From assembly GCA_963754775.1 (NCBI GenBank), contig CAVWHM010000045.1:134494-198493 (forward strand): a stretch of DNA of 64,000 bases, given 5' to 3'. Position numbers and translations under genes: made by a program. The notes beneath the pieces are model-generated. The model worked only from the letters and a program-made list of their open reading frames with translations, ran no database searches and was not told the DNA's origin. The DNA is from an uncultured Verrucomicrobiae bacterium. GTDB taxonomy: Bacteria > Verrucomicrobiota > Verrucomicrobiia > Limisphaerales > UBA11358. Shown piece after piece: positions 15,766 to 18,700 of this stretch. The first letter of the stretch is position 1. Each line of letters begins with the position of its first letter.

Positions 15766-18700
15766 TACGTCGCAATCAAGTTCACCAGCTTCTTCGGCAC
15801 GACAATGACTTTTTTGATCGTCTTGCCTTCAAGGAACGGCTTCACTTTTTCGGATGCCCTGGCGGCGGCCTCCAATGCCGCGTTGTCGGCGTTGGCCGGG
15901 ACTCTGATGACGTCGCGCAACCTGCCGTTGACCTGCACGGGGATTTCCAGCGTGTCCTCGACGAGCAGCGCCGGGTCGAATTTCGGCCACGGTTGATAAC
16001 TCAAGTCCACAGTTGCCGGGCCACTGTCCCCGGTCGAATTGCCAACGGACGGATTGACTGTGGACTGTGGACTGTGGACTGACAACTTTTCCCACAATTC
16101 TTCCGCCAAGTGCGGTGCGAAGGGCGCGAGCAAAATCAAAAAATCACGCAGTACCGAAATGGGCTTCGCCTTCCACGTCATTGCCTCGTTCACGAAAACC
16201 ATGAGCGCGGAAATCGCCGTGTTGAAACGCAAGCCGTCCAAGTCCTCCGTCACCTTTTTGATGCAGGCGTGCAGAGTTTTAAATTGCGCCGGCGTTGGTT
16301 CGACATTTTGAATCGAACCGCTGAGTTGGATTTTTTTGAGCAATTCTGCGCCTTTTTGCGGCTGAATTGTTTCCGCCTGTTCAAGCTCCGTTTCGCTTTT
16401 TTCATCCACGAACAGCCGCCAGACACGGCCGAGGAATTTATAAACGCCGGCCACACCTTTCGTGCTCCATGGCTTCACCATTTCGAGCGGGCCCATGAAC
16501 ATTTCATAAAGACGCAACGCATCCGTGCCGAAATCTCTCAGAACATCATCGGGATTCACCACATTGCCGCGCGACTTGGACATCTTAAAGCATCTGGTTT
16601 CTACTCGAACGATGTGAGGACTGTCCTTTAGGCAAAACCAAGGGCCACGCTTTTCAACTTTTTCTGCCTCAATTTTGTGGGCAACTATTTCCTCATTTGT
16701 AATTTTGTCTTTGCCTACGAGAGTTTGGCCAACATCAGTAATATCTTTTATTCCCTCAACACTGATTGGTTCACCATTTTTATCGCGGAACAAATAAAAT
16801 TCCATTTCGCCGAGGATCAGGCCTTGGTTGACGAGTTTGAAAAACGGTTCGGGTGTCGAGACGTACCCGAGATCGTAAAGCACCTTGTGCCAGAATCGCG
16901 CGTAAAGCAGATGCAACACGGCGTGTTCGGTGCCGCCGACGTATAAATCCACGCCCGGCGTGGATTTGGGGTCTGGGGTCTGGGATTTCGGTTCTGGGGA
17001 ACCCATCCAGTATTTCTCAGCTTCCTTGCCGACGAACGCATTCGGATTCTTCGCGTCGAGAAAACGCAGATAATACCAGCACGAACCGGCCCATTGCGGC
17101 ATCGTGTTCGTCTCACGCACGGAGCCGTCCGGCAGTTTCACCCAATCTTTCGCGCGGGCGAGCGGCGGCTGGCCGTCGGGCGTGGGTTTGTAATCTTCCA
17201 AGGCGGGCGGCAAGACCGGCAACGCGGATTCCGGCAATGCCTCGTGATAAAGATCTCCGGTCGCATCACGCTTCCAGACAATCGGGAACGGCTCACCCCA
17301 GTAACGCTGCCGGCTGAAAAGCCAGTCGCGCAATTTGTAATTAACGGTCTTCTTGCCGAGACCTTTTTCTTCGAGCCAAGCAGCGATTTTCTGTTTGGCT
17401 TCGGGCGTGGGCAGGTCGTTCCAGGAAATCTCCGCGTTTGCAGAATTAACGCCAAATCCACTCGCCACCATTGCTGTCGGGAAAATTTCCGGCTTGGAAA
17501 TGTATCTCTCGACGAGCTTTTCCCACTTCAAATCCTCAATTTTGTCTCCAGGAAGTTCGAGCATGAATGAATCTCGCTGGTCTGGCAAAACCACCGCACG
17601 AATAGGCAAATTAAATTTCTTAGCAAATTCAAAATCCCGCTCGTCATGCGCCGGTACAGCCATGATTGCGCCTGTGCCATAGTTCGACAAAACATAGTCT
17701 GCAATCCAAATTGGGATTCTTTCGCCATTGACCGGATTTACAGCGTAAGCGCCGGTGAACACTCCTGTCTTCTCCTTCGCAAGTTCCGCACGCTCCAAAT
17801 CCGATTTCCGAGCAACTTCATTTTGATAATCTTTTACAGCTTGCGCTTGCGTCAAAACTTCCCCTTGGTATTTGCTGTATCGGTCATAATCATCGAAAAT
17901 GCACGCTGGCGGATTTGAACGTGGATTTACTTCGATAAGATCAACACCCTTTGCCTTCGCCCGAGCCGCCGCTTCAGAAATACTGACATTTTCGGGAGAT
18001 TTTGAGCCGTCGAAAAGCCGGATCACCGGCGAGTTAATCTGGTCATTAACACGATATTCCCGGTTTGCTAAAGCGAAAATATCTCCAACCAACCAGTGCT
18101 CCGGCGCTAGAACCATGTAGGTCGCTCCAAACAGAGTATCTGGACGAGTTGTGAATACTTTGACCGAGTAGCGGGTTGGCCCGGGTATTTCAATTTGAAA
18201 TTCAACCGTTGCTCCCTCACTACGGCCAATCCAATTCCGCTGCATTTCTTTGAGTGAATTACTCCAGTCAATAATGTCGAGGTCATTGAATAGGCGCTCG
18301 GCATAGGCAGTAATTCGGAGAACCCATTGACGCATCGGTTTGCGAACGGCGGGGAATCCACCGACTTCGCTTTTGCCGTCAACGACTTCTTCTTGTGCAA
18401 GGACTGTGCCGAGAGCTTCACACCACCAAAATTCCGCGTTAGCAACGTAGGCGAGACGGTGTTCATCAATTTGCTTGCGTTTGAATTCTTCCCGTTTTTC
18501 GACGGAAGTTAAAACATACCCATTTCTCAACCCGGATACATATTCACCGTATTCTCGTTTGACCCATTGCCGCTGTGGATTTTCAGTCATCACATCCTCA
18601 AGAATCTCAATTGATTCAGCCTTTTGTGTGTCTGGATTGAACCACGAGTTGTAGAGCTTCAGGAAAATCCATTGCGTCCACTTGAAATAATCCGGGTCGG

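Follow-up and report, generated by a model that had tools for sequence, protein, structure and literature searches.

The leucyl-tRNA synthetase (LeuRS) encoded in the window, by which we mean the whole 64,000-nucleotide stretch of DNA that was analysed, contains within its CP1 editing domain a segment that, judged from its sequence and its predicted structure, is almost certainly a genuine, folded copy of the IF3 (initiation factor 3) N-terminal domain, some 65 aa long with short linkers at its sides (72 aa net). The explanation we favor, to which we give a rough probability of 0.4, is that this IF3-N graft would be a folded, maintained and dispensable accessory module that tunes LeuRS. A translation-factor domain nested in a synthetase editing domain is apparently an undescribed architecture: the first-pass annotation of this DNA knew of no description, and a literature search for IF3-N in any aminoacyl-tRNA synthetase likewise found nothing relevant. 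The features discussed here are located in Table 1.

Table 1. Positions in the window of leuS, its CP1 domain and the inserted module
Feature	Residues of LeuRS	Window positions	Strand	Basis
leuS, bacterial-type leucyl-tRNA synthetase	1132 aa	15765..19163	-	TIGR00396, motifs, model
CP1 editing domain with nested IF3_N module	~248-597 (approximate bounds)	17373..18422	-	PF13603, 4K47 alignment
TTRPDT, threonine-rich editing-site motif of CP1	338-343	18135..18152	-	translation; invariant in alignment
Net insert, by comparison with insert-free LeuRS	365-436 (72 aa)	17856..18071	-	55 carriers and 42 non-carriers aligned
IF3_N (PF05198) domain proper	372-432	17868..18050	-	Pfam match, fold match
KSDLE motif	453-457	17793..17807	-	conserved in alignments A1, A2

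By profile, motifs and predicted fold the host enzyme is an otherwise complete bacterial LeuRS. It scores 918.9 bits against the TIGR00396 profile (cut-off 548.4), which is equivalog level, and its translation has the class I motifs HVGH (residue 76) and KMSKS (residue 860) as well as the CP1 editing motifs TTRPDT and GTG...AHDERD, all of them invariant or near-invariant in the LeuRS alignment. The full-length model (pLDDT 83.6) superimposes on E. coli LeuRS 4AQ7_A over 719 residues (Z 37.6, rmsd 2.8 Å), and the C-terminal tRNA-binding domain is present, since full-length E. coli chains align up to model residue 1132. Catalytic and editing motifs, fold (Z 35-39) and an equivalog-level score are thus shared with the known bacterial LeuRSs of E. 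coli (4AQ7/4ARC), T. thermophilus (2BTE) and N. gonorrhoeae (6YKS), but those proteins are about 810-880 aa long, whereas the window LeuRS is longer and carries several insertions specific to its lineage, among them an entire foreign domain. It is the single leuS detected in the genome (a 76%-complete, metagenome-type assembly), and P0003 is a recorded protein of identical sequence (1132 aa).

PF13603 matches the CP1 region with 189.9 bits in two separate stretches, and 183/183 residues of 4K47, the editing domain of S. pneumoniae, can be aligned with model residues 316-607 (rmsd 1.7, Z 26.1), about 109 residues of the model being extra relative to 4K47. The module is nested in this domain, in agreement with its first-pass placement inside CP1, and it begins 26 residues after TTRPDT (about 25 had been estimated). 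The insertion site is a surface hairpin loop that joins the post-APEHxLV helix to the helix entering KSDLE, and that in solved LeuRSs and in 42 related insert-free LeuRSs is a tight turn only, of two residues in the window's congeners. The TIGR00396 match is broken off exactly around the segment (between profile positions 269 and 268), and in a 97-protein alignment the loop measures 83-97 residues in 55 carriers and 17 in all 42 insert-free LeuRSs, so the initial impression, formed on E. coli LeuRS, that nothing equivalent stands here holds for other LeuRSs as well. All 27 sequences of alignment A1 have K453, D455, L456 and E457 of the KSDLE motif; all 97 of alignment A2 have K453, and the remaining four positions (S454, D455, L456, E457) are at least 90% conserved there. 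Manual motif alignment sets E457 as the equivalent of E292 of E. coli LeuRS, which binds the A73 phosphate and the U72 2'-OH in the aminoacylation state (PMC3664829), and a gap of 20 residues lies between the last residue of the insert (436) and this Glu.

Positions 17865-18056 (minus strand) encode LeuRS residues 370-433 (64 aa, YRVNDQ...SKYQ), which the first-pass annotation had aligned by eye with the N-terminal domain of E. coli IF3. The same alignment is returned by phmmer against PDB sequences (E. coli IF3, E = 3.8e-07; 1TIF, E = 2.1e-05). The Pfam IF3_N profile, proposed in that annotation as a check, gives 44.8 bits with the segment alone (E = 1.5e-11) and 38.4 bits with the whole LeuRS (profile positions 1-61 of 70), both above the Pfam cut-off of 26.9, and 33-68 bits in four other carriers. 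Structure prediction, also proposed there, agrees: the AF2 model of the insert alone (pLDDT 85.3) matches 1TIF with a TM of 0.86 (rmsd 1.8 Å, 75 columns), the first nine ranks of a PDB fold search with it are all IF3 or mitochondrial IF3, and it has the IF3-N alpha/beta fold, in which four strands pack against one helix and the linker helix then begins. The prediction is confident in the full-length LeuRS model as well, where ten-residue blocks of residues 361-440 average pLDDT 84-94.

The insert and the bacterial IF3 N-domain (PF05198; PDB 1TIF, 6O6D, 5LMN chain X) have the same fold and belong to the same sequence family; they have in common the signature R-x-N, DL-x-E and PP-x-C, and the C-terminal helix of the insert matches the first part of the linker helix of IF3. 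The fold-core residues N16, P62 and C65 (E. coli numbering) are present in 56/60, 54/60 and 59/60 inserts (93%, 90% and 98%), and the window insert has all three. Unlike IF3, however, the module is nested in another protein rather than N-terminal, and no IF3 C-terminal domain follows it. The infC equivalog profile TIGR00168 scores 35.3-40.9 bits on the LeuRS insert (cut-off 60), over positions 2-76 of 170 only. A normal infC (104.5 bits to IF3_N), whose retention the first-pass annotation had wished to see confirmed, lies elsewhere on the same contig, and four other carriers have one too; because a normal infC is retained, the LeuRS insert is not a replacement for IF3.

Could the fusion be an assembly chimera or a mis-called frame? 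The incomplete, metagenome-type assembly (above) makes the question reasonable, but the reading frame runs open through the insert into LeuRS motifs on either side, its codons are under purifying selection (below), and the same architecture is found in about 58 LeuRS protein clusters from independent NCBI, ENA and JGI assemblies with contigs up to 840 kb. The GC content of the insert is continuous with that of its CP1 flanks, the whole CP1 region being low (45-50%). An artefact is effectively refuted by these observations, and the GC values also led us to reject the insert as a compositionally foreign island.

All of the roughly 58 carrier clusters come from Verrucomicrobiota-type assemblies where named, and the survey of LeuRS lineages recommended at the outset shows a patchy distribution: the insert occurs in 6/201 genomes sampled from the order and is missing from all three congeners of the window. 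A single-protein scan for related loci gave one Verrucomicrobiota carrier and apparent infC genes of other phyla. The insert profile found short proteins only (74-297 aa, consistent with IF3 and fragments) in a 50%-representative library, a search that is uninformative on other hosts, probably because the order's LeuRSs cluster with insert-free representatives. A single origin of the inserts is not rejected (AU p = 0.26), and the data are compatible with one graft within one Verrucomicrobiota order. Several sub-families have arisen from the graft by divergence, and its distribution today is patchy, probably because leuS alleles have been exchanged at a conserved locus. Because three of three congeners and most of the order are without the insert, we consider it very probable that the module is accessory and dispensable.

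The 8 kb beside leuS (19.3-27.2 kb) encode a pilin-like N_methyl protein, a PSCyt1 protein, a multihaem cytochrome and a Big_7 protein, an arrangement that is the same on the closest carrier contig and partly present in genome G421. No mobility or biosynthesis genes were seen in this 8 kb, and the idea that it is a mobile element or antibiotic cluster accounting for the odd LeuRS was rejected on its gene content.

The CP1 loop is an insertion hotspot, which is a new observation. In related LeuRSs it holds nothing, a short W/P-rich loop, an MshEN domain (PF05157, at least 17 clusters) or mostly low-complexity stretches of 60-100 residues. These same-order LeuRSs share the loop, the host enzyme, the phylum and an equal patchiness with the IF3_N carriers, but what is grafted there has no relation to IF3-N. 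Both MshEN and low-complexity inserts sit within a W/P-rich frame that the IF3_N carriers do not have, and homology between the IF3_N and MshEN grafts was rejected (hhalign probability 15%). That the loop tolerates MshEN and 60-100 low-complexity residues suggests that it faces solvent and not a critical interface.

Such tolerance fits a view in which a coding copy of IF3-N landed in a permissive loop and has been carried as a harmless passenger that folds on its own and has no ligand; selection would act on folding alone, and would do so because an essential enzyme could ill afford an unfolded insert. The assortment of material (or nothing) at this loop in relatives, the retention of fold-core residues while IF3 functional residues are relaxed, the fast divergence of the sub-families and the fact that close relatives manage without the insert all agree with it. 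The insert is nevertheless under purifying selection. Among close carriers (the window's sub-family) its omega is 0.13-0.29, with dS near saturation, compared with 0.08-0.11 in the flanking parts of CP1 and 0.13-0.15 elsewhere in leuS; the values are level with the rest of an essential gene and lower than expected if all surface positions were free. The insert has also been retained across the approximately 58 clusters, which have diverged to about 20-25% identity, and no decayed or truncated copies were found among them. A passenger is a possibility that we take seriously but think doubtful. When sub-families are compared, divergence of the insert is about 4-5 times faster than that of the LeuRS backbone, and it evolves faster than the IF3-N of the same genomes (23-48% identity compared with 48-80% in the same genome pairs).

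If the module has a ligand, the tRNA elbow comes first to mind, as it is the one well-defined ligand of IF3-N (PMC9723500, PMC5037330): R25, Q33 and R66 of IF3-N contact G19, Psi55, C56 and A57 of the initiator-tRNA elbow (PMC9723500). The module might then hold the elbow of tRNALeu in the same manner, and the preserved IF3-N fold together with R25, which is kept in the window insert (as R383) and in 32/60 inserts, would allow this. But the inserts, unlike IF3-N, do not conserve these contacts. In the window insert Q33 is replaced by Ser and R66 by Ile; R25 is invariant in IF3, and the R66 position, which is R/K in IF3, is basic in 13/60 inserts. Both elbow-contact basic residues are present in 3/60 inserts and in 164/173 IF3s, and the loss of this pair argues against an IF3-like tRNA grip. 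Moreover, the C-terminal domain, present here, already takes the tRNALeu elbow in bacterial LeuRS (PMC3561953), and the graft point is near the acceptor end, tens of angstroms from the elbow by a rough estimate from general tRNA geometry. We regard an IF3-like grip as very unlikely, and the extra tRNA contact suggested by the first-pass annotation is not supported in the form in which IF3-N works, although a tRNA contact of a non-IF3 kind is possible. Three tRNALeu genes are present in genome G000.

The IF3-N fold could instead have been put to new use as an additional binding site of LeuRS, whose ligand would be tRNA (the enzyme's own or the initiator), the 30S platform or a partner protein; we think this improbable. 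As a docking or moonlighting module, it would bind the 30S platform, initiator tRNA or a protein and so link leucylation or editing to translation initiation or to channelling near the ribosome. The domain that bears the module is mobile, the module itself is exposed to solvent, and its low omega suggests selection on its surface, both of which are in keeping with docking. However, the 30S contact of IF3-N itself is weak and poorly defined, that with uS11 being described only as 'possible', and the elbow-contact residues are relaxed in the inserts. The gene neighborhoods of the carriers examined hold nothing that points to translation initiation, and a distribution that is patchy even among congeners speaks against a core role in the cell, which leaves docking with a small share of the probability.

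We thus return to an accessory module that tunes LeuRS. It would be a folded, selectively maintained addition on the side of CP1 turned towards the tRNA acceptor arm, would no longer use IF3's elbow grip, and might add a weak, lineage-specific contact or a steric guide for tRNALeu, at the acceptor/T-arm backbone or the long variable arm; alternatively, its target might be the swing of CP1 between aminoacylation and editing. The enzyme would work without it. The position of the insert, which ends 20 residues before the E292-equivalent Glu, speaks for tuning, while the relaxed elbow residues, the fast divergence of sub-families and the tolerance of the loop for unrelated inserts suggest the contrary, and we put forward the specific tRNA-tuning mechanism only tentatively. 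The leucine-specific domain, the ZN1 module and the CP1-internal insertions are LeuRS-specific folds; they too are appended or inserted but, unlike the present insert, are not borrowed from another translation factor. Idiosyncratic LeuRS modules, including archaeal and eukaryal CP1-internal insertions, can be lineage-specific or dispensable and tune tRNA handling (PMC3643597, PMC4005665).

New in this work are the hotspot nature of the CP1 loop, the purifying selection on the insert and the loss of the elbow-contact pair. Aminoacyl-tRNA synthetases are textbook cases of function gained by domain acquisition, and here one loop of one essential enzyme in one order offers a natural allelic series (no insert, short loop, IF3-N, MshEN, low-complexity), a ready experiment on the capture of a foreign domain, the upkeep of its folding, the loss of its old function and the possible gain of a new one. 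For LeuRS engineering, too, a loop on the CP1 surface that accepts large insertions is useful. If the module is inert, it is a well-documented curiosity of domain shuffling. If it were a second binding site, it would physically tie leucylation or proofreading in these Verrucomicrobia to a further step of translation, and the MshEN domains grafted into this loop would serve LeuRS as alternative regulators of a plug-in type.

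The 64 residues that the first-pass annotation had likened to the N-terminal domain of E. coli IF3 are the exact reverse-strand translation of window positions 17865-18056 and form residues 370-433 of a LeuRS that is on record as an identical protein (P0003); upstream read-through accounts for the longer leuS open frame, up to 19496. On the segment by itself PF05198 (IF3_N) reaches 44.8 bits, and within the full protein 38.4 bits (cut-off 26.9), spanning profile positions 1-61 of 70, and the alignment originally made by eye was recovered by phmmer against PDB sequences (E. coli IF3 at E = 3.8e-07; 1TIF at 2.1e-05). 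Residues 357-445 were modelled with AlphaFold2 from 43 insert sequences (pLDDT 85.3), and the best PDB match of this model is 1TIF (TM 0.86, rmsd 1.8 Å over 75 columns); 6O6D and the IF3 chains of 30S initiation complexes are other top matches, and ranks 1-9 are all IF3 or mitochondrial IF3. The host, judged by its TIGR00396 score (918.9 bits versus a cut-off of 548.4), is a bacterial leucyl-tRNA synthetase, and the assembly, 76% complete, yielded a single leuS. Across residues 361-440 of the full-length model (mean pLDDT 83.6) ten-residue blocks average 84-94, and the remainder matches structures of bacterial LeuRS with Z of 35-39 (4AQ7: Z 37.6, 2.8 Å over 719 residues). The stand-alone editing domain 4K47 aligns fully over residues 316-607, with ~109 extra residues within CP1, and the C-terminal domain is present. 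These results demonstrate that an intact LeuRS has a genuine IF3 N-domain nested within its CP1. A normal infC is retained, as had been put forward for checking, on the same contig as leuS (104.5 bits, 250-aa frame) and also in four other carriers. The insert falls short of a complete IF3: against the infC equivalog model it scores just 35-41 bits (cut-off 60), over the N-terminal part only.

Features of the window leuS region and of related loci
Feature	Position	Strand	LeuRS residues	Remark
leuS (LeuRS)	window 15765-19163	-	1132 aa	translation and TIGR00396
HVGH and KMSKS	window LeuRS			both present in translation
TTRPDT editing motif	window LeuRS		338-343	present
GTG...AHDERD editing motif	window LeuRS			present
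Net insert, 72 residues	window 17856-18071		365-436	carrier/non-carrier alignment
KSDLE motif, near-invariant	window LeuRS		453-457	entered by helix following insert
Leucine-specific region	window 16530-16890			GC 38-50%
Whole CP1 region	window 17340-18690			GC 38-50%
metK	window 13474-14649	-
N_methyl/PSCyt1/cytochrome/Big_7 block	window 19318-27132			next to leuS
MshEN insert, 120 residues, in G521 LeuRS	L039:3972-4406	+		PF05157, 67.9 bits
IF3_N in two infC-like genes of G421	C87:9767-9973; C431:6328-6537			full-scoring
416-aa ORF, start of contig C45 of the window genome	L001:10-1260	-		immediately upstream of infC

Relative to the ~860-aa E. coli enzyme, the window LeuRS has further lineage-specific expansions besides IF3_N (residues ~186-236, 527-570, 780-860 and 1030-1050): one is helical and precedes CP1, one is a CP1 segment modelled with low confidence, one enlarges the beta-rich leucine-specific region and one is a disordered linker ahead of the C-terminal domain. 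The GC content of the catalytic core is 55-68%, higher than in the leucine-specific and CP1 regions; this mosaic is real, yet not particular to the insert. The 416-aa ORF by infC resembles a Mutator-family transposase by eye, and two infC-like genes with full-scoring IF3_N also occur in G351 and G146, two other genomes of the phylum; such pairs may reflect duplication or bin contamination.

An alignment of 55 carriers and 42 insert-free LeuRSs was used to set the boundaries of the insert. Between APEHxLVxxI and xxQxxAVxxY there are 83-97 residues in carriers and always 17 in non-carriers, so the net window insert is 72 residues, and LeuRSs without the module have no counterpart of it, as had been noted for the E. 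coli enzyme. By manual alignment E457, in the KSDLE motif, corresponds to E. coli E292, a CP1 residue that in the aminoacylation complex forms hydrogen bonds with the tRNALeu A73 phosphate and U72 2'-OH and is paired with R416 (PMC3664829); the graft therefore lies at the far end of a hairpin that contacts the acceptor arm with its near end. If the module acts at all, it may be as an accessory contact or a steric guide by this acceptor-arm face of CP1, a reading to which we give a probability of roughly 0.3.

Relatives manage without the module. Precomputed PF05198 matches in a 5.8-billion-protein collection, clustered at 90% identity, place it in 58 LeuRS clusters (P0003-P0060), all from metagenome-type assemblies. 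In the genome collection only one carrier record gives a phylum, that of a Verrucomicrobiota MAG (L056); the label on P0059 reads 'Candidatus Angelobacter' (Acidobacteriota in NCBI), yet the identical protein also occurs in a genome from the same order as the window. In a sample of 401 species representatives from across the phylum the module lies in a long frame only in the window genome, and within the order six of 201 sampled genomes carry it (G000, that of the window, G452, G458, G499, G534 and G421), each from a different family. All three other genomes of the window's genus are without it (two have a plain turn, one a short W/P-rich loop), and carriers and non-carriers are mixed in each of genera g202, g206 and g260.

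The CP1 loop that holds the IF3 N-domain accepts many kinds of insert, with at least four states in the order: nothing (ITTPEQ), a 20-26-residue W/P-rich loop, IF3_N and MshEN. The MshEN version, nested within the W/P-rich frame, is found in at least 17 clusters (P0273-P0289); an hhalign probability of 15% led us to reject homology of the two grafts. No N-terminal c-di-GMP-binding motif was evident by eye in the MshEN of G521. In other LeuRSs the W/P-rich frame (VPxxWPxxxPxxWKG...SPxEAVxAYRxYA) holds 60-100 mostly low-complexity residues, in some with clear tandem repeats; such expansions occur in P0290-P0292 and P0294, those of P0291 and P0294 being S/G/N/P-rich (e.g. SGNSIPA-type units), and P0293 has the short loop alone. 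Foreign Pfam domains of other kinds occur in some LeuRSs of the group: HAD-type hydrolase families in P0100, and PF18812 in P0055, P0081 and P0286. The main rival to an accessory contact or guide is a passenger domain that is tolerated here and retained merely as something foldable, which we likewise hold only tentatively.

The insert is under purifying selection: omega among close carriers is 0.13-0.29, against 0.08-0.11 for the CP1 flanks and 0.13-0.15 for the remaining gene, rough values with dS near saturation. Between sub-families its dN is 0.5-1.0, ~4-5 times that of the backbone, and identity in the same genome pairs is 23-48% for the insert versus 48-80% for IF3-N. The sole well-defined molecular contact of IF3-N is with the initiator-tRNA elbow, via R25 (invariant), R66 and Q33 (PMC9723500; PMC5037330). 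Position 25 is Arg in 163 of 173 genuine IF3s and 32 of 60 LeuRS inserts, position 66 is Arg or Lys in 173 of 173 and 13 of 60, and both are basic in 164 of 173 and 3 of 60; in the window insert, positions 25, 33 and 66 are R, S and I. The fold-core residues N16, P62 and C65 are kept in 171, 172 and 169 of the 173 IF3s and in 56, 54 and 59 of the 60 inserts. At the residue level IF3's elbow-binding signature is thus gone from the inserts, and with the fold core kept and the elbow residues relaxed it is the fold that is under selection and not the ancestral tRNA grip. The extra tRNA contact suggested in the first-pass annotation accordingly finds no backing if it were made as IF3-N grips the elbow; such a grip is very improbable, less likely than an accessory contact or a passenger, given also that the C-terminal domain, present in the window enzyme, already holds the tRNALeu elbow (PMC3561953). 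A role in docking the enzyme to the ribosome or to some other partner is unlikely, again less favoured than contact or passenger.

A tree of the domain, with 43 inserts alongside 21 N-domains from genuine IF3s, does not reject the hypothesis that the inserts all share one origin (AU p = 0.26); insert branches are much longer than those of IF3, and the inserts split into deep sub-families, the window falling in a 22-member group (support 96/91). On a LeuRS tree with insert columns removed (62 rows, a quick search with many unresolved forks) carriers are scattered and 12 changes are needed, at least eight of them forced by well-supported branches. The window LeuRS belongs to an all-carrier clade of nine, including G452 from another family, that is sister to two congeners without the insert. 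Synteny across the group is AhcY-MetK-methyltransferase, leuS, a variable block and coaX. Between the window and congener G578 flanking genes are 88-91% identical and LeuRS just 68%; for carrier P0007 the values are 78-89% and 75%. With this weak tree, exchange of leuS alleles at a conserved locus seems to us a more probable reading of the pattern than a large number of independent exact deletions. The window MetK is 74% identical to that of G578 and 88% to that of congener G533, and its neighbour AhcY 91% and 86%, so the leuS flank is itself mosaic, which is consistent with frequent recombination in the region. In the block beside leuS are genes for a pilin-like N_methyl protein, an 843-aa PSCyt1 protein, a multihaem cytochrome (Paired_CXXCH) and a Big_7 protein; the block adjoins leuS in carrier contig L075, is partial in G421 and is absent from the three congeners, where leuS abuts coaX.

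No mention of an IF3 N-domain in any aminoacyl-tRNA synthetase was found in the literature searched. New here are the CP1 hotspot, where MshEN and low-complexity stretches occupy the same loop, the loss of elbow-contact residues in the inserts, the tie of the insertion site to the KSDLE/E292 acceptor contact, and evidence of allele exchange at a syntenic leuS locus.
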